Part shown: positions 236 to 18,806 of the stretch, piece by piece
How positions within the stretch are numbered: position 1 is the stretch's first letter
Layout: the number at the start of each line of letters is the position of its first letter
Assembly (NCBI RefSeq): GCF_004010195.1
Contig: NC_057752.1
Coordinates: 2,004,878-2,025,000 of the forward strand
Direction: 5' to 3'
DNA length: 20,123 nt
Source of the DNA: Chiloscyllium plagiosum
Taxonomy: Eukaryota
Notes under the pieces: model-generated
Seen by the model: only the letters and a program-made list of their open reading frames with translations
What the model was told of the DNA's origin: nothing
Database searches by the model: none
Made by a program: the position numbers and the translations under genes

Positions 236-1796
236 CAGGAGTGTGGGTGCTGCACAAAATAAAAGTCATTTTGCACCAGTTCTGACCATCAGTCCATGTG
301 ACCTGATTGACACCATATAAGAGCAGCCTCTGCAACCCCTTGAATCTCCCTCTTGCTGCCTACCCTCCAGTTCATGAAGACTTCCTGACCCTCCTGGTTT
401 GCTGCCACCTCTTCATCTCACCATTTCTCCAGCTCACTGTTTACCTCCTACCTCTTGCTGCTCATCACCAAAACCCACATTTATAGCAACAGTTTCGGAG
501 AGAGACATGGTAAGCAGGAGGAGCAGCAAAGGCCACAAACTAGAGAGTTGGTGAGAAGAACAATCTACAAAACAATTGGGGTGGGGGGGGGGGGGCAAAA
601 AGCAGGAGAAGCCATGAGCTGCAAAATTAACAAAGTCAAGGGTCAGGGAAAGGGAGAGTCCACAAGCCAAAAGGTTGGCAGTGAGAGGGTCAGGAAGTAT
701 GGAAAGCTGGTAGTTTGGTGAGCAGGATTGGTGGTGAGCAGGATTGGCAGTTTGCAGGAGAGCCAGCAAGTGGGAGGGAGGTAGAAAGTTACCATATTTA
801 TCTTTATTTTTTCAATTTATTTTGTAAGTTATTTAGCAATGTAAATTATTTCAATTTGCAGGATATATTCTTCTAACATTTTTTGTCTGATGAGATGCCA
901 TACTGAACTTAACTATAGCTTTTACACTGGATTTAACGGCTCAGGCATGAGAGTGTTATCATTGAACAAAGGCTGATATCTTGCATAGGAGCATTATAAA
1001 TATTTTTGTTAAGTTTACATGTGTTTGAGACATTCACACCACATGCTGAGAAACATTAAATTAATCAAAGAGAATGCTACATTCAGGAAAACATCTGGTT
1101 GTTATGGATTGAATTTTACAGGGTTAAATACTGATATAAAAGGTGCAAGACACCAGGGACCATGATTATTCTGCCATTAGACCTGTTATAACCTTGGAAG
1201 TGTGAACTGTGAACAACTGTCTAGGCTCAATAATATAGGCTATGAGTTCAGATCAATCTCTGAGACGTTGTGCTCCATTACCTTCAGAAGGGGACATTTT
1301 AGAGGTTCTCCTCATTGGAGTTTTTCCCCTGTGGTTACTGAATCCCCGCAGAAGATTAATCAAATCAGGAAGAGGCCATAATAGTAAAATTTGGACCACA
1401 GACCAGAGTTTTCTCGATTTCTATTTTCTTATATTTCACATCATTTCCATAGAGAACATCAACATTTTCTGATACGTCTTAAGATCAGCAGGATTAAAGG
1501 CAATTATGTGTCTGCAAAAGGAGAACATCTGATAAATTAGACCAGTCTAGCCATCACAACTGGGCAGTTCTGATATTGCAAATTTTTAAGAAACAAAACT
1601 GTTAAAAGAATACTGCTTCTTTAAAACCTGTAACTGAAGTTTTAAAAGTCTGTTACCTTGAGTTTGTTTAGAACCTATTGAATTGAGTTATTCAATTATC
1701 ACTCACAAAAGAATTAGCTTAGAATTTGATTATGGAAATGGAATTCCATAATTTGGAAATGGATTTGAAAATGGAATTGTGTAGATTAGATGCGCT

Positions 1797-1861
1797 TCAG
1801 ATTGGTCTCACAACATCAAGGGCTGAAGGGCCTGTACTACGCTGCAATGTTCTATGTGCTA
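1797..1861 (+). mobile_element. Short CR1 LINE 3' tail
   Basis: cacaacatcaagggctgaagggcctgtactacgctgcaatgttctatgtgcta matches the CR1 terminus at 18755-18806 (cacagcatcgtgggccgaagggcctgttctgtgctgtattgttctatgttct). Confidence 0.7.
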
Positions 1862-1992
1862 TTACCCCTGTACAACATAGTGGGAGTGTAGTGATTGGAA
1901 CCAGGTAGATCTTGTTGACTATGAGGTCCTTGATTGGTGTTGCTAACCTGGGCCAATTAGGTAAGCCCTGCCTGACCAATAGTCACAGGGGA

Positions 1993-2150
1993 ATTTGAGG
2001 TTTGTCCTCCTCTCCCTGTAAATTGGTTGAACGGTAGGGTTCAGGGCCCAGCTTTGCTGCTCCTCTCCCTTGTAAAATTGCTGTCTTTTGTGTACAGCTG
2101 TCAATGTTTTTTTGTAAACTGTTTTGTAATTTGTTCAATAAAAAAAAAAA
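1993..2150 (+). mobile_element. Short 5'-truncated poly(A) retroelement (insertion A) with 15-bp TSD
   Basis: Perfect direct repeat AATAGTCACAGGGGA at 1978-1992 and 2149-2163; AATAAA running into poly(A) at 2137-2150; homologous to 3571-3714. Confidence 0.8.
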
Positions 2151-2534
2151 TAGTCACAGGGGATTTAGAATCTCCTCAGTTCAGGGGACTAACTCTGAAC
2201 TGGCTGGCCACAGAGCTAGTGTGTACTGTTGTTGGTTTGTTGTTTTGGGGGAACCTGATACCTGAACTGGCATTCCTTTTTTTTATTGAGGACTGATTTT
2301 TAAACTGGCTGATCTTCACAGTCAATGTGTTACAGATGTAATTCAGTTCATTAGGGAACTGTTGTTTCACTGGCTGGTTACAGCCTGTGTGTTACTCTTT
2401 TCTTCCACTTTGAGAAAAGGACTGTACTGATTTTGTAGCAGGCCTCAGCCCTTGCACTCTGGTTTTCTTTCTTTTTTGCATGTGTTTTATTTTGGTGTTT
2501 GGACTGAGCCCCTGTGAGATAATGTACCTTTCCA

Positions 2535-2840
2535 GATGAACTGTTTCTGTGTGGGTAGGTCTGACCCTCTGTGAGTGGACTAGGCCTCTGTAAAGACTGA
2601 ACACCTGTGTGTGTGTGTGTGTGTATGCTGGGAGGTGAGCATTTGCTGCCTGTTGGTGTGGACTCTGCCTGTTGGAGTGGATCATTCCCTGTAAGTTAAC
2701 CGTATCTTTTATAATGAACTGTATTCTTGTGAGTGGGCCTAGTTCTCTGTGGATAGACCAAGCCTCTATGGAGACTGAACACCTGTGGGGTGTGCATTTG
2801 CTGCTTTCAGGAGTGGACTCTGCCTTTGGTTGTGGATTCT
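2535..2840 (+). repeat. Diverged ~180-bp tandem duplication with a (TG)n expansion in the first unit
   Basis: ATGAACTGT...GCCTCT.T..AGACTGAACACCTGTG...GCATTTGCTGC...GTGGACTCTGCCT occurs at about 2536-2685 and 2714-2840; (TG)n at 2606-2624. Confidence 0.75.
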
Positions 2841-2974
2841 GTTTATGGTAATGGTCTCTGGTTCAGAAGGGACTCTGTTGGTAATTGACATTGTTTTGTC
2901 ACTTGTTGGCTTTATCAGTGCAGTGTCTTGTGTCTCTGGGTCTGGCAGGCCTTACTGTGAGCTGGGAGGCTCAT

Positions 2975-3455
2975 AGGTCATCCTGAGAGCCAAGGGTGGG
3001 TAGGCCGTCCTAAGAGCCGGAAGGTGGGTAGGCTGTTCTGAGTGCTGCTGTTCCGAGAAGGGGTAATTGGGATGGGCTGTTCTAGAGGTGATTGGAAGGT
3101 GTGTCGGAGTGGCTGAGAGTCAGAAGGTACGTAAGTGTGGGCCAAGATCCAGAATACTTGTGGGCTGCTCTGAGCACTTTTCTCCCAGGGAGGGGATGGG
3201 CTGTTCTAGATGTGGCCTGGACATGTGTCAGGGCAGTCCACAGGCCAGATGGTGCATCCGGGTGGGTGAGAACCAGATGGTATGTAGGGGCAGATGGAGC
3301 TGGAAGGCGGGTAGGACATCCTTAGCGTTGTCACCTCGGGGAGGTACCGGGACGGTTTGTCTTAAAGGTGGCCGGAAGGTGAGTCAGGGTGGGGATTGAG
3401 AGCCGGAAGGGGTGTGAGGTGGGCTGCCTTAGAGTGGTCGGAAGGTGGGTGGGAC
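2975..3455 (+). repeat. Degenerate G-rich array of the motif GAGCCGGAAGGTGGGTAGG
   Basis: Copies near 2986, 3014, 3116, 3270, 3297, 3370, 3400 and 3436, with GGGCTGTTCT-like sub-motifs interspersed. Confidence 0.65.
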
Positions 3456-4270
3456 AGGTGGCTTGCTGGGTTGCGGAATGGGAGTGGGTGGTCTGTATTC
3501 TATGCACTGTTTCTCATTTTATTGGATTGTCTTGTATGTATTTGTTACTTTTGTGGTGACTGAAAGTGGGATTTGAGGTTTGTCCTCATTCACCTGAAAA
3601 CTGGTTGAACGGTGGGGTTTAGGGATCTGTCTTTGCCACCCCTTTCCCCTCCAAATTGCTTGTATGTGGCTGTTCATGTTAACTGTTTATCTGTAATTTG
3701 TACTAGTTAATAAAATATTAACAGGGGATTTAGAATCGCCTCAGTTCAGGGGACTGACTGAGCTGGCAAGCACACATGGCCAATGTACTATGCACAAGTA
3801 AATAAAGGTGACATGGAGATGGACTATTGGCCTCTGTGCTGTTATTTCAGGACCTTCCAAAAGTGAAAGAATTCAAAGCTTGTGGGAGGGCAAGATGTTT
3901 TATCATAGAAACATTTTGCTTTGCTTGTGATAGAGACAAAAAAAACTGCAGATGCTGAAATCCAAAGTAGTCAGGCAGGAGGCTGGAAGAACACAGCAAG
4001 CCAGGCAGCATCACGAAGTGGAGAAGTTGACATTTTGGCTGTAACCCTTCAAGACTGGGGTTGGGTGTAGGGGGAGCTACAGATAAAGGGGGAGGCGTGG
4101 TGAAGTGGGGCGAGGTGAAGACAGGCAGAGGGTATGAACTGGTTGGTCAATGAATCTGGTGGGTGGCAGGGAGGGGGAGGAGCTGGGAAATTGGAGACCT
4201 CAATATTGAGTCCTCTGGGCTGTAGGCTGCTCAGGCAGAAGATGAAGTGGTGTTCCTCCAATTTGCGGTT

Positions 4271-5126
4271 TTAATTGAATTTATTGTCTCGTGAACTGAG
4301 GCACAGTGAAAAGCTTTGTCTTGAGAGCAATACAGGCAGGTCACAGAGTTAAGTAGCATAGATAAGTAAATAATAGGTAAACAGCGGCAAAAACCAAAAC
4401 ACAGGTACAGGTGAACGTTAAGAGTTTGTGAGTCCATTCAGTATTCTAACAACAGTAGGGTAGTAACTGTTTCGAAACCGGCTGGTGTGTGTGTTCAGGC
4501 TTCTGTACCTTCTCCCCGATGGTAGAGGTTGTAGAAAAACATTGCCAGGGTGGGATGGATCTTTGAGAATGCTGGCGGCCTTTCCTTGACAGCGGGCCTG
4601 GTAGATGGATTCTATAGATAGGAGGTTGACCTTTGTGATTGTCCGGGCTGAGTTCCAGTGCGTCCACATGAAGTGTCCAAGAAAGCTTGTTGTGGATGAC
4701 CCACTCCCAGGAGCTTGACACTCCCCACTGGTTCCACTCTGTGCTGTTAATGTGTGGGGGGGAAGGGGGGGCATGAGTAACATCCTGCCGAAAGTCAATA
4801 ATGAGTTCCTTGGTTTTGCCGGCATTGAGAGCTAGGTTGTTCTCAGTGCACCATTTTTCCAGGTCTTCCACCTCCCGTCTGTAGTCTGTTTCGTCGCCAT
4901 CTGAGATTTGACAGACTACGGTGGTGTCATCAGCGAACTTGTAAATAGCATTAGTCTGGTATTTGGCGACACAGTTATGGGCATACAGTGAGTACAGTAG
5001 AGGGCTGAGTACACACCCCTGGGGGGCTCCAGTGTTGTGTTAGTGACGTTGAAATATTGTCCCCAGTCTTCACTGATTGTGGCATGTGGGTCAGGAAACT
5101 GAGGATCCAGTTGCAGAGAGTGGAGC
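4271..5126 (-). mobile_element. Rex1/Babar-type LINE, 5'-truncated RT C-terminus plus 3' UTR (pseudogenised)
   Basis: Minus-strand motifs LCNWILSFL, TGAPQG.., KFADDTT (4921-4940), WCTENNLALNAGKTKELIIDFR and LPSGRRYRSLNTHTSRFRNSYYP; tail CACGAGACAATAAATTCAATTAA. Frameshifted. Confidence 0.85.
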
Positions 5127-5430
5127 TGTTGTGGTTATGGAGGAGGCCAAGGATGGTCATGTTGGAATGGGACTGGTAAGGGGAATTAAAATGGACGGTG
5201 GCTGGGAGGTCCAGTCGGCCCCTGTGGGCCCGGCTGAGATACTTGGTGAACCGTTCCCTAAGTTTACGGTTCTTCTTCTCCTCGATTGTAGAGAAGACCA
5301 CATCGGGAGCACCTGATGCAGTCAACTAGGTTGGAAGAGAGACAGGTGAATCTTTATCGTCACCTATCCCCACCTCACCACTCTGCCCCCACCACCCCCT
5401 TTATCTGCAGCTCCCCCTACACCCAAACCC

Positions 5431-5465
5431 AGTCCTGAAGAAGGGTTACACCTGAAACATCGATT
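5431..5465 (+). ncRNA. Degenerate PLE-type hammerhead ribozyme motif
   Basis: AGTC-CTGAAGA-AGGGTTACACCT-GAAA-CATC-GATT. The core boxes CUGANGA and GAAA are present; stems are eroded by CpG-type changes. Confidence 0.55.
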
Positions 5466-5875
5466 TCTCCACCTGATGCTGCCTGGCTTGCTGTGTTCTT
5501 TCAGCCTCTTGCCTGTCTACTTTGCTTGTGATGAAGACAGGCTGCAATTGTCATTCTATGCAGTACGCCCAGGAAGAATCCAGACATCAGAAATGGTTCT
5601 TGGCCAGAAGGAGCAAAAGGAGGAAGGCATACAGAAATCACCTGCTCTTCTATAAAAGAGTTCAGTCAATTTGCAAGTGAAATATCTGCAGAGCTAGTGA
5701 TGAGCAAGAAAACTCTCACCCTCAAATCCTGCTGATTGCTGAGTCCACTAGTACAGGCAAACATTGACTATTGAATTACATAATTCATCACAGATGCTGA
5801 ATCTGACTTCAAGTTTCAACCACTTTGCTTTAGAAAAATAAACTAGAGGAACTAACAGAATTCAATAGTCAATGT

Positions 5876-7248
5876 TTGCCTGTACTAGTGGACTCAGCAA
5901 TCAGCAGGATCATCTCCCAGACCATCCATAACCTCATCACCTCAGGGAATCTCCCATCCACCGTCTCCAACCTCATAGTCCCACAACCCCGCACCGCCCG
6001 TTTCTACCTCCTGCCCAAAATCCACAAACCTGACTGCCCCGGACGACCCATCGTCTCAGCCTGCTCCTGCCCCACTGAACTCATCTCTGCATACCTCGAC
6101 ACGGTCCTGTCCCCATTAGTCCAAGAACTCCCCACCTACGTTCGTGACACCACCCACGCCCTCCACCTCCTCCAGGATTTCCGCTTCCCCGGTCCCCAAC
6201 GCCTCATCTTCACCATGGACATCCAGTCCCTGTACACCTCCATCCCCCATCACGAAGGACTCAAAGCACTCCGCTTCTCCCTTTCCCGCCGTACCACCCA
6301 GTACCCTTCCACCGACACCCTCCTTCGACTGACCGAACTGATCCTCACCCTGAACAACTTTTCTTTCCAATCCTCCCACTTTCTCCAAACAAAAGGAGTA
6401 GCCATGGGCACCCGCATGGGCCCCAGCTATGCCTGCCACTTCGTAGGGTATGTGGAACAATCCATCTCCCGCAACTACACTGGCCCCACCCCCCATCTTT
6501 TCCTCCGCTACATTGATGACTGTATCGGCGCTACCTCGTGCTCCCACGAGGAGGTTGAACAGTTCATCCACTACACTAACACCTTCCACCCCGACCTCAA
6601 ATTCACCTGGACAGTCTCGGACTCCTCCCTCCCCTTCCTAGACCTTTCCGTTTCTACCTCAGGCGACCGAATCAACACGGACATCTACTACAAACCAACC
6701 GACTCCCACAGCTACCTAGACTACACCTCCTCCCATCCTGCCCCCTGTAAAAACGCCATCCCATTCTCCCAATTCCTTCGTCTCCGCCGCATCTGCTCCC
6801 AGGAGGACCAGTTCAAAATACGTACAACACAGATGGCCTCCTTCTTCAAGGACCGCAATTACCCCCCCCGACGTGGTCGACGGTGCCCTCCACCGCATCT
6901 CCTCCACTTCCCGCTCCTCCGCCCTTGAGCCCCGCCCCTCCAACCGCCACCAGGACAGAACCCCACTGGTCCTCACCTACCACCCCACCAATCTCCATGT
7001 ACAGCGCATCATCCGCCATCACTTCCGCCACCTCCAAACAGACCCCAGCACCAAGGATATATTTCCCTCCACTCCCCTATCAGCTTTCCGTAGAGACCAC
7101 TCCCCCCGCGACTCCCTTGTCAGATCCACACCCCCCACCGACCCAACCACCACTCCCGGCACCTTCCCTTGCAACCGCAGGAGGTGCAACACCTGCGCCC
7201 ACACCTCCCCCCTCACTTCTCTCCAAGGCCCCAAAGGAAAATTCCATA
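5876..7248 (+). pseudogene. PLE reverse transcriptase (ORF 5876-6928, continued after a +1 frameshift in the 6873-7331 frame)
   Basis: Motifs FYLLPKIHK, GRPIVS, MDIQSLYTSI, QTKGVAMGT, LRYIDD, FLDL, YYKPTDSHSYLDYTSSHP, IPFSQFLRLRRICS. One extra C in the C8 run at 6862-6869. The first ~11 codons appear to be flank-derived. Confidence 0.92.
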
Positions 7249-7310
7249 NNNNNNNNNNNNNNNNNNNNNNNNNNNNNNNNNNNNNNNNNNNNNNNNNNNN
7301 NNNNNNNNNN
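7249..7310. other. Assembly gap (N run)
   Basis: 62 N; shorter than the GIY-YIG coding sequence expected here by comparison with the minus-strand PLE copy. Confidence 0.98.
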
Positions 7311-7662: not shown

Positions 7663-8117
7663 TTTACAAAGATGTTGCCAGGGTTGGAGGGAGAGGCTGA
7701 ACAGGCTAGGGCTGTTTTCCCTGGAGCGTTGGAGGCTGAGGGGTGATCTTATAGAGGTTTACAAAATTGAGGGACATGGATAGGATAAATAGACAAAGTC
7801 TTTTCCCTGGGGTTGCGTAGTCCAGAATGAGAGAGCACAGGTTTAGGGTGAGAGGGGAAAGATATAAAAGAGACCTAAGGGGCAACGTTTTCACACAGAG
7901 GGTGGTACATGTATGAAATGAGTTGCCAGAGGATGTGGTGGAGGTTGGTACAATTGCAACATTTAAGAGGCATTTGGATGGGTATATGAATAGGAAGGGT
8001 TTTGAGGGATATGGGCCAGGTGCTGGCAGGTGGGGCTAGATTGGGTTGGGATATCTGGTCAGCATGGACGGGTTGGACCGAAGGGTCTGTTTCCATGCTG
8101 TACATCTCTATGACTCT
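7663..8117 (+). mobile_element. CR1 LINE 3' fragment
   Basis: TKMLPGL..RLNRLGLFSLE..LRGDLIEVYK, RGERYKRDLRGNVFTQRVV; 3' UTR ending CTCTATGACTCT. Confidence 0.9.
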
Positions 8118-8252
8118 CAAAGGTTAACTCTGAGGACACATCTGACATGGTGGTAAAACTAGCAAAGTTAGATAACTGGGTACACAGTTTGGTCTATAGT
8201 TTTACAAATATATATTCGAACCTCTCAAATAGAACAATCAAGTATATTCTAC

Positions 8253-9073
8253 GGATCAGATGGGCTTATGGGCTGAGAAGTAGCAGATGGAGTTTATTTT
8301 AGATAAATGTGAGGTGCTGCATTTTGGGAAAGCAAACCTTAGCAGGACTTATACACTTAACGGTAAGGTCCGAGGGAGTGTTGCTGAACAAAGAGACCTT
8401 GGAGTGCAGGTTCATTGCTCCTTGAAAGTGGAGTCGCAGGTAGAAAGAATAGTGAAGAAGGCGTTTGCTATGCTTTCCTCTATTGGTCAGAGTATTGAGT
8501 ACAGGAGTTGGGAGGTCATGTTGCAGCTGTATAGGACATTGGTTAGGCCACTTTTGGAATATTGCGTGCAATTCTGGTCTCCTTCCTATTGGAAGGGTGT
8601 TGTGAAACTTGAAAGGATGTTGCCAGGGCTGGAGGATGAGCTATAGGGAGAGGTTGAACAGACTGGGGCTGTTTTTCCTGAAGCGTCGGAGGATGAGGGG
8701 TGTCCTTATAGAGGCTTAAAATCATGAGGGGCATGGAGAGGGTAAATAGGTAAAGTCTTTTCCCTGGGGTGGGGAGTCCAGAACTAGAAGGCTTAGGTTT
8801 AGGGTGAGAGGGGAAAGATATAAAAGAGACCTAAGGGGCAACGTTTTCACACAGAGGGTGGTACATGTATGGAATGAGTTGCCAGAGGATGTGGTGGAGG
8901 TTGGTACAATTGCAACATTTAAGAGGCATTTGGATGGGTATATGAATAGGAAGGGTTTGGAGGGATATGGGCCGGGTGCTGGCAGGTGGGACTAGATTGG
9001 GTTGGGATATCTGGTCGGCATGGACGGGTTGGACTGAAGGGTCTGTTTCCATCCTGTACATCTCTATGACTCT
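8253..9073 (+). mobile_element. CR1 LINE 3' fragment (ORF2 C-terminus plus 3' UTR)
   Basis: QMEF..DKCEVLHFG, QRDLGVQVH.SLK, LYRTLVRPLLEYCVQFWSP, FTQRVVHVWNELP; ends CTCTATGACTCT. Confidence 0.93.
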
Positions 9074-12049: not shown

Positions 12050-12770
12050 AGTCAAGATGGCAGCAGAATACAACGCTTCAGGAGGAACTTGCCTACTCAT
12101 CCATTTCCTTTTTTCTCTTTCTTCACTTGTTTCTTTTTCTTCCTTCTTCTCTCTTCAGTGGCCCAGCGTGGTGATCTCTCAGTCCAGCTTGGCGGTCTTT
12201 CAACAGTATGTGCCGGTCACTCAGCCCAGCGTGGCCTCAGTGTGGTCTTCTGGTCTCAAAGTGATTCCTGAAAGCATGGTCCAACCATGGCTAAGCACTT
12301 AAGAAAGATTGTAATGTTTGAACTTTCAGATTTATTTGTTTATTTTCTACTTAAACCTAAAAGTCTACAACGTGTAACTTTTAACCTTTTTTTATGTTTT
12401 ACATTCGACTATAATTACTGCAACGTTTAACTTTTAACTTTGTTCTTTCTTTCTACCTTGTTCTTAAGATTCTGTACCTAGGTACTTATAGGCAAAAGTG
12501 AGGACTGCAGATGCTGGAAACCAGAGTTTAGATTAGTGATGCTGGAAAAGCACAGCAGGTCAGGCAGCATCCGAGGAGCAGGAAAACTCCTCGGATGCTG
12601 CCTGACCTGCTGTGCTTTTCCAGCACCACTCTGATCTAAACCTACGTACTTATACCTAGGATGGTGCCATGTGTGGTGACATTATATACTTTTCACTGTC
12701 GTCTTTTACTTCTGTATTTGAGTACATGTGACAATAAAATCAAAAATCAAATCAAATGAATTCAAATCAA
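12050..12770 (+). mobile_element. Non-autonomous retroelement with a Rex1/Babar-like 3' tail
   Basis: Begins near CAAGATGGCAGC. Ends TTTTCACTGT...GAGTACATGTGACAATAAA followed by (TCAAA)n-like repeats, resembling the Rex1/Babar tail at 4271-4312 (minus). No LINE coding motifs. Confidence 0.5.
12491..12640. mobile_element. Miniature fold-back PLE derivative (two inverted terminal segments)
   Basis: Perfect 39-bp inverted repeat at 12540-12578 / 12587-12625 with an 8-nt loop. Arms match the PLE terminus at 7609-7647. TSD CCTA(G/C)GTACTTATA at 12477-12490 and 12641-12654. Confidence 0.88.
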
Positions 12771-16894: not shown

Positions 16895-17210
16895 CTGGAG
16901 TGTTGGAGGCTGAGGGGTGACCTTATAAAGGTTTATAAAATCATGAGGGGCAGAAGGTGAATAGTCAAGGTCTTTTCCCCGGGGTGGGAGTGTCCAAAAA
17001 TAAAGGGCATAGGTTTAAGGTGAGAGGATAAAGACTTAAAAAGGACCTATGGGGTAAGTTTTTCACACAGAGGGGGGTGCATGTATGGAATGAGCTGCCA
17101 GTGGAAGTTGTGGAGGCGGGTACAATCACAACATTTAAAAGGCATCTGGATGGGTATATGAACAGGAAGGATTTAGAGAGATATGGGCCAAGTGTTGGTA
17201 AAAGGGATTA
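16895..17210 (+). mobile_element. CR1 LINE 3' fragment, cut before its tail by the next element
   Basis: RLRGDLIKVYKIMRG, GHRFKVRG, FFTQRGVHVWNELP, FKRHLDGYM; homologous to 8680-8995. Confidence 0.88.
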
Positions 17211-17656
17211 GAGGATTCTGGGTAATCCAAGATGGAGGACGGGAAAAATTTCTGGCTGTAACAGGCTGCTCCTTTTTTTAAGTATTTTAGGTTTTAGAGG
17301 TGATTTCCTCAAATTCCGGGAACAGCAATTACTGTTTGATATGCTGTTGCATTGTTTTGGAACTTTGGAGAAAAAAAAAGTCAAAACAGCAGTAGTTTTA
17401 AAAGGGGAATGAGGAACAGACAAAGGAAGCATATGGTCAGGTCAGTGCAGGAGAGAGAGAAAAAAATTGACACGGCAGTGAACCTGCACAGTTACTGCCT
17501 TTGCTATATGAATTCACATATCGCTGGATATCGGAGTGTGTCTGGGAAAATTAACAAACAGTGAAATTCACAATTGATCTTGGATGAACCTGTTTGGGAG
17601 AGGTCGCAGCACAGAAACAGAAGTGAATATTTAAGTGTGACCTTCAGTGTGATTTA

Positions 17657-18806
17657 AGGGGTGGTACCAGGGGACTGGAGAGTGGCGAATGTTGTGCCCC
17701 TGTTCAAAAAAGGGAATAGGGATAACCCCGGGAATAATGGAAAGGGTACTGAGGGATAGGATTTATGAGTATCTGGAAAGACACTGCTTGATTAGGGACT
17801 GCCCGGATTTGTGAAGGGTGGGTCTTGCCTTACAAGTCTTATTGAATTCTTTGAGGAGGTGACCAAGCATGTGGATGAGGGTAGAGCAGTGGATGTAGTA
17901 TACATGGATTTTAGTAAGGCATTTGATAAGGTTCCCCATGGTAGGCTTATGCGGAAAGTCAGGAGGCATGTGATAGTGGGAAGTTTGGCCAGTTGGATAG
18001 AGAATTAGATATGATGCAGAGCTGGGCTGAGGAGTGGCAGATGGAGTTCAACCTTGCCAAGTGTGAGGTTGTCCATTTTGGGAGGGCAAATAAGAATGCG
18101 GAATACAGGGTTAACTGTAGGGTTCTTAGTGAGGTGGAGGAAGAGAGGGATCTTGGGGTCTATGTTCATTGATCTTTGAAAGTTGCCACTCAGGTGGATA
18201 GAGCTTGTAAGAGGGCCTATGGTGTATTAGCGTTCATTAGCAGAGGGATTCACTTCAAGAGTCGTGAAGTGATGTTGCAGCTGTACAGGACCTTGGTTAG
18301 GCGACATTTGGAGTACTGTGTGTAGTTCTGGTCGCCTCACTTTAGGAAAGGTGTGGAAGCTTTGGAGAGGGTGCAGAGGAGATTTACCAGGATGTTGCCT
18401 GGAATGGAGAATAGGTCGTACGAGGATAGGTTGAGCGTGCTAGCCTTTTCTCATTGGAACGGAGAAGGATGAGGGGTGACTTGATAGAGGTGTATAAGAT
18501 GATCAGGGCAATAGATAGAGTAGACAATCAGAAACTTTTTTCCTTGGTACAACAGAGTGTTACAAGGGGACATAAATTTAAGATGAAGGGTGGAAGGTAT
18601 AAGGGAGATGTCAGGGGTAGGTTCTTTACCCAGGGAGTGGTGGGGGCATGGAATGCACTGCCTGTGGGAGTGGCAGAGTCAGAATCATTGGCGAACTTTA
18701 AGTGGCAATTGGATAGGTACATGGATGGGTGCTTAAGCTAGGACAAATGTTCGGCACAGCATCGTGGGCCGAAGGGCCTGTTCTGTGCTGTATTGTTCTA
18801 TGTTCT
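17657..18806 (+). mobile_element. Nested CR1 ORF2 3' half with internal deletions
   Basis: GVVPGDWRVANVVPLFKKG, SCLTSLIEFFEEVT, DVVYMDFSKAFDKVPH, then a jump at about 18007 to WAEEWQMEFN (PQG and ADD motifs missing), LYRTLVR..LEYCV*FWSP; tail TGTTCTATGTTCT. Confidence 0.92.

Follow-up and report, generated by a model that had tools for sequence, protein, structure and literature searches.

Two related retroelement 3′ ends lie at this locus, each directly before the same target sequence, and the question that they raise is whether they record a family of elements that inserts at one fixed position of another repeat, as an earlier note on this DNA had proposed. The window is a stretch of 20,123 nucleotides from Chiloscyllium plagiosum (contig NC_057752.1), and all positions below count from its first letter. 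To follow the repeats beyond this single locus, contigs from three public DNA runs (three organisms) and reads from one RNA run (X21) were aligned to positions 1750–3950 at a likeness of at least 80%, with about 82–85 in 100 of each DNA run covered but, for the RNA run, 2 in 100. We conclude that the locus as a whole is probably best explained if a single poly(A) retroposon family inserted twice, as the copies here called A and B, into the same target word of an LTR-like repeat.

An LTR-like repeat split at one word

The target is itself a dispersed repeat. Matches begin at 1887 with unrelated 5′ flanks in 267, 255 and 260 contigs of the three DNA runs; the repeat opens with TG at this position and ends with CA at 3849, and its 4-base outer flanks agree at 3 of 4 positions. 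Three joints between contig pieces skip A, each in all three DNA runs, and six skip B, five of them in all three runs (both counts among 15 of 1033 joints). Other copies of the LTR join 2207–2213 to 3779–3785, and 136 X8 contigs depart at 2213 and then resemble 3781 onward. From the contig starts, the ends and the joints that skip A or B, it follows that 1887–3849 is a single dispersed LTR-like repeat of ∼227 bases that has been split twice. Empty, it is a multicopy repeat of ∼227 bp, and it combines TG...CA ends, a short flanking duplication, a poly(A) signal and dispersed copies, as the LTR of a retroelement does; at this locus it stands as a solo LTR-like repeat. Its parts and the two insertions are arranged as follows:

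1887–1977, + strand: 5′ part of the solo LTR-like repeat, predicted U3, with the TG start and a conserved CCAAT box (1953–1957)
1978–1992, + strand: target word copy 1, the left duplication of A, at the TATA position; 15 of 15 bases identical to 2149–2163
1993–2148, + strand: insertion A, a 5′-truncated retroposon 3′ end with AATAAA at 2137 and poly(A), skipped by joints in all three DNA runs
2149–2163, + strand: target word copy 2, the right duplication of A and the left boundary of B; 13 of 15 bases identical to 3714–3728
2164–2226, + strand: D1, the post-target LTR segment, predicted R region, with an initiator-like word (2176–2182) and two hairpins; its distal half is likely the head of B
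2227–2405, + strand: 5′ part of B, made up of three decayed D1-like units (2236–2276, 2277–2338 and 2339–2405), with paralogous contigs
2406–3570, + strand: body of B, non-coding and multicopy, with T-rich and then G-rich internal repeats (periods of about 155–178 and 27–28/124–156)
3571–3713, + strand: 3′ end of B, carrying AATAAA at 3709 and homologous to A, with identity at 109 of 139 paired columns
3714–3728, + strand: target word copy 3, with a TATA-like hexamer at 3716–3721; 13 of 15 bases identical to copy 2
3729–3849, + strand: 3′ part of the LTR, with D2 (3729–3791, containing an initiator-like word at 3741 and the first hairpin), AATAAA at 3801 and the CA end

The insertion site falls at the predicted TATA position of the LTR. 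It had been described as lying by CCAAT boxes, and the box at 1953 is indeed conserved, but the site is better named for the TATA-like word; a further CCAAT, which straddles the cut site, is missing in the one other LTR copy with letters at that point. The general initiator consensus is matched 25 bases past the start of the TATA-like hexamer, at 3741 and at 2176, and a hairpin opens there in both places; on the strength of this consensus we take both words to be initiator-like. No transcription start site was seen in RNA run X21. The 17-base core of the target occurs twice in the window, where 0.11 occurrences are expected.

Two separate insertions and their possible specificity

The 3′ ends of A and B halt at the same position of the target (2149 and 3714), and the target word follows the 3′ end at both of the 2 junctions in the window. 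As had been claimed, the two ends are related and clearly diverged: 109 of the 139 paired columns of their tails are identical (78%), with 15 transitions, 15 transversions and 15 gap columns, and their alignment scores 137, compared with a maximum of 64 in 300 shuffles. Neither tail folds better than its shuffles (z –1.5 for A and –1.3 for B). Since the tails are only 78% alike, A and B are separate insertions.

The poly(A) and perfect 15-bp target-site duplication ascribed to A hold at 15 of 15 bases: the direct repeat that flanks it (1978–1992 and 2149–2163) is identical over exactly 15 bases, for which the probability by chance is about 4e-7. A thus shows a poly(A) 3′ end, 5′ truncation and a target-site duplication, traits that are not specific to Tx1 elements. 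Two details needed adjusting. The element is the one described before, but it ends at 2148, since the duplication already takes in the final two A of the run; and the 7-base homology between element and target is present at the 5′ side, but the real 5′ joint has one extra A. Because A is 5′-truncated and carries its own perfect duplication, it must have inserted independently. The earlier proposal is thus supported in part: two separate insertions, with the marks of target-primed reverse transcription, share a single fixed position within a multicopy LTR-like repeat.

The family to which A belongs is expressed. In run X21, 41 RNA reads over A extend 5′ of 1993 into other sequence, which makes A a truncated copy of an expressed family, and RNA depth over A is 41, 65 and 26 in the inferred sense direction compared with 3–4 in the opposite one. 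The number of reads drops from 51 at 2136 to 9 at 2191. Since only 1 of 453 RNA reads is 99% alike to the window, the reads derive from other copies.

Insertion B, previously regarded as a 143-bp 3′ end, proved to be a non-coding, multicopy element of about 1.5 kb, spanning about 2164/2227–3713 inside the same LTR and lacking poly(A) beyond its AATAAA. Contig depth over B ranges from 171 to 36,000, compared with about 16 for a single copy, and exceeds the single-copy level in every bin. No coding sequence was recognized in A and B by six-frame reading, nor any ORF remnant in 2200–3720, and the 4 open frames inside 1976–3396 gave no Pfam match at cut-off (one weak match, E 0.046); of the 4 open frames outside this interval, 2 are reverse transcriptases. 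Neither the 5′ nor the 3′ part of the LTR has a significant match inside B, and patterns for the element tail and the target matched nothing in either viral or metagenome contigs. Two X8 contigs span 3243–3593 and 3564–3950 with 13 and 10 differences and then continue into unique flank; they probably represent the orthologous locus, on which basis we infer that insertion B predates the split of the two organisms that are labeled A and B. Few RNA reads cover the T-rich part of B (2268–2785), mostly in the opposite direction (21 compared with 1.7 at 2490–2563), and these may be antisense RNA or a product of internal priming.

On whether the family may be specific across the genome, the contigs give indirect and mixed evidence. 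In favor, loose ends at 2137–2150 or 3705–3715 number 0 among 24 of 3103 rows, a figure to be read with the fact that poly(A) can shorten junction contigs, and contig counts are 32–52 at 2136 compared with at least 128 at 1858. The neighboring, presumably CR1-like 3′ end (1857–1862), by contrast, has 183–421 random-flank contigs per row in each DNA run. Against specificity, summed depth is 7.8, 2.9 and 9.2 fold higher over the middle of A than over the 5′ part of the LTR, depth being a poor measure of copy number. With such an excess, single occupancy of this LTR subfamily cannot hold for most copies, and stacking, other LTR subfamilies or off-target copies are needed. For comparison, the rule for a target-specific family in PMC4494074 is that the target be present in >20% of flanks.

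These counts bear on an improbable alternative, namely that the preference is weak and many A/T-rich, TATA-like words are used, or that B was copied inside an LTR element, so that two insertions at the same base mark a local hot spot. A tail depth far above that of the LTR would fit this, as would the adjacency of the cut site to an A-rich word able to pair with poly(A), and only a single locus was read; but A inserted on its own, and its family lacks, among the rows above, the random-flank loose ends that are plentiful at the adjacent CR1-like end. Far less credible still is a local origin of the second junction, either by tandem duplication or with 1993–2226 and 3571–3790 as terminal repeats that bound a single LTR or DIRS-like element. 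Although the tail-plus-target blocks do align (222 columns, 74%), their target portion comes from a different repeat, copies of which occur with neither insertion in them; A, moreover, is flanked by its own perfect duplication, ends in poly(A), and differs from B by 22% in its body. The joints across empty sites largely refute this explanation, and the concern that a single insertion had been duplicated locally can be set aside on the same three grounds: the divergence of the tails, the perfect duplication of A and the existence of empty sites.

The 5′ side of B and a possible LTR-derived head

The sequence shared after the two junctions had been put at 43 bases, but it extends to ∼75 (2149–2223 with 3714–3787), at an overall identity of 83% (63/76). 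No 15-base duplication lies at the 5′ side of B; instead, 2149–2191 matches 3714–3756 at 39 of 43 positions and 2192–2226 matches 3757–3791 at 24 of 33. Counted from the end of the target word, D1 is identical to D2 at 26 of 28 positions (3729–3756) and then at 24 of 33.

On the evidence of sequence resemblance, B starts with sequence like the post-TATA segment of the LTR, followed by three decayed units of the same. D1 aligns with the three units at scores of 22.5, 26 and 35, values that 3, 1 and 0 of 1000 shuffles attain, and against the third unit the alignment opens on the initiator-like word itself (2176 with 2343). The summed score of 83.5 compares with maxima of 71.5 over 404 other stretches of the window and 64 over 500 shuffles, though the likeness of the units to one another inflates it. 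A profile built from the three units alone finds 2180–2225 at E 5.7e-4, its next match being at 5.8. D1 folds better than its shuffles (z –3.2), as does the third unit, with the same two hairpins (z –2.9), and the hairpin signature occurs on the + strand of the window only at 2177, 2344 and 3742, with 0.07 expected; both the unit borders and the hairpin pattern were picked after the matches had been seen.

Other comparisons are less favorable. Aligned with the entire B, D1 reaches a best score of 35, where the top of 200 shuffles is 35.5 and 1 of 26 other window segments equals it. D2, which is an independent copy of the LTR segment, matches the units more weakly (scores reached by 2, 25 and 4 of 1000 shuffles, and for its distal half by 19, 60 and 187 of 1000), and it is missed by the three-unit profile. 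Units 2236–2276 and 2280–2338 fold no better than shuffles (z 0.3 and 0.8), nor does D2 (z –1.2). A candidate fourth unit at 2406–2470 was rejected, its score being reached by 354 of 1000 shuffles.

The units are not confined to this copy. Of the 24 contig pieces listed, 20 are paralogous to 2265–2597 (9 of them beginning at 2265–2293), which makes the second and third units features of the family. One X12 contig, among 12 of 377 rows, links 2195 to 2277 via 35 letters like 2196–2235, and in our judgement it is too diverged to be an orthologue. Rfam gave 0 matches at gathering score in the whole window, with no SINE head derived from an RNA gene (tRNA, 5S, 7SL or snRNA) among them; B thus appears to have no RNA-gene head, and the head that it does have resembles LTR sequence. 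Whether the 5′ part of B is a family head rather than a local accident we regard as evenly balanced.

An accident of this kind, with the targeting itself being real, could have arisen if both LTRs of one old element were hit once each and a deletion then joined the 5′ LTR (up to 2226) to the inside of the B copy in the 3′ LTR, in which case B would represent a long 3′ untranslated region in truncated form. Such a history would account for the 75-base repeat and for the 3 of 4 matching outer flanks without any new mechanism, and none of the contig pieces listed aligns continuously across 2226/2227. We nevertheless consider it unlikely, because it leaves unexplained both the presence of three D-like units right after the joint and the diverged X12 contig with the same joint, and because identity falls along the repeat from 39/43 to 24 of 33–37 (Fisher p 0.06 or 0.006), a fall that two LTRs of one element would not have to show.

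Under the favored explanation of two targeted insertions, a sequence-specific and probably Tx1-type LINE endonuclease likely cuts at the predicted TATA box of the LTR. Target-primed reverse transcription is the established basis for the steps that would follow: a first nick, placed in the bottom strand at the 5′ boundary of the TATA word, would prime reverse transcription of the poly(A) tail, and a second nick about 15 bases on would duplicate the target word. Since duplication regenerates the target, the site would therefore be open to repeated insertion and to stacks. B, whose 3′ junction is common to a second organism, would have come first, and A would have followed as a short truncated copy from an abundant, expressed sister subfamily that landed in the upstream copy of the word.

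The head of B could extend this scheme. After insertion, the CCAAT box and the duplicated TATA of the LTR would precede a head bearing an initiator, and for this reason the promoter of the host LTR would transcribe the passenger. The long duplication of B (43–75 bases) would stem from the homology that its head shares with the target at the 5′ joint, and an occasional longer capture would append a new monomer to the head. We advance, tentatively and as a possibility that we rate below the insertion history itself, that B is a non-coding element, present at full length, that travels as the passenger of an LTR-targeting LINE: promoterless, with a head copied from the start of the LTR transcript (initiator and 5′ hairpin), with homology of head and target completing the 5′ joint, and with heads gained repeatedly and decaying into monomers. 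If this were true, the choice of site would be explained by the free use of a host promoter, target choice and promoter theft would be a single adaptation, and the transcription of promoterless Tx1 passengers would become testable.

Known target-specific systems and neighboring repeats

By analogy, the system would work like a target-specific Tx1 system (for clade context, PMC3747384). The crocodilian Tx1 families Tx1-8_Crp and Tx1-4_AMi insert in LTR retrotransposons (PMC4494074, section 15); they are coding and placed by reverse transcriptase phylogeny, whereas A and B are non-coding, and the main text of that section gives neither an LTR position nor an LTR-derived head. Closer in several respects are SINEU-1/2/3, which together with Tx1-Mar occupy Mariner-N4_AMi, with tandem SINEU-3 insertions around a duplicated target (PMC4494074). 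Like the present elements, they are non-coding poly(A) passengers with a transposon as target, tandem insertion, repeated gain of heads and proposed transcription from the flanking target; section 20 of the same paper proposes such transcription and raises as a question how promoterless Tx1 passengers are transcribed. Their heads, however, come from U1/U2 snRNA and their DNA transposon target is entered in the opposite direction, whereas the head of B is similar to sequence that lies downstream in the target itself, and B is oriented with the LTR sense strand.

Tx1L in Tx1D of Xenopus and Keno and Utopia in U2 genes likewise use a fixed point in a multicopy target, with precise 3′ joints, variable 5′ joints and occasional tandem insertion (Utopia-1_NVit), but their targets are different and Utopia has a restriction-like endonuclease (PMC4494074, PMC4640811). 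With respect to the proposed head, HeT-A of Drosophila offers a parallel in being non-autonomous, with an upstream promoter and short 5′ tags from upstream sequence; it differs in forming telomeric arrays, in having its promoter in the 3′ end of a sister element and in having no endonuclease target, and it is not a relative (bioRxiv 10.1101/782904). In the literature covered, neither this family nor a Tx1 passenger with an LTR-derived head is described, though Repbase or Dfam may hold such a record. LTR targeting as such is already known, and what is new here is the LTR-like 5′ part of B. To the LTR-targeting LINEs already known, the locus also contributes a case that is probably from a cartilaginous fish, and it suggests an endonuclease whose target is a defined word of 15 bases.

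Several other repeats lie in the window. A 364-codon open frame at 5834–7310 matches Pfam RVT_1 at E 1.7e-8, runs into an assembly gap at about 7249–7310 and is presumably Penelope-like, judged by resemblance. At its 5′ break lies a perfect 52-base inverted repeat (5726–5777 and 5859–5910, 81 bases apart), which may be an inverted duplication formed at insertion. Inverted copies of one retroelement 3′ end, 89–94% complementary, are found at 3963–4100 and 5387–5524, with a minus-strand reverse transcriptase fragment between them (4446–5039; RVT_1, E 1.3e-12). We take 1809–1862, 7688–9057, 16895–17273 and 17660–18806 to be CR1-like LINE 3′ ends; those at 7688–8101 and 8645–9057 are 85–94% alike and 957 bases apart. 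At 12535–12630, finally, a 44-base near-perfect palindrome is formed where this same retroelement end stands twice, head to head.
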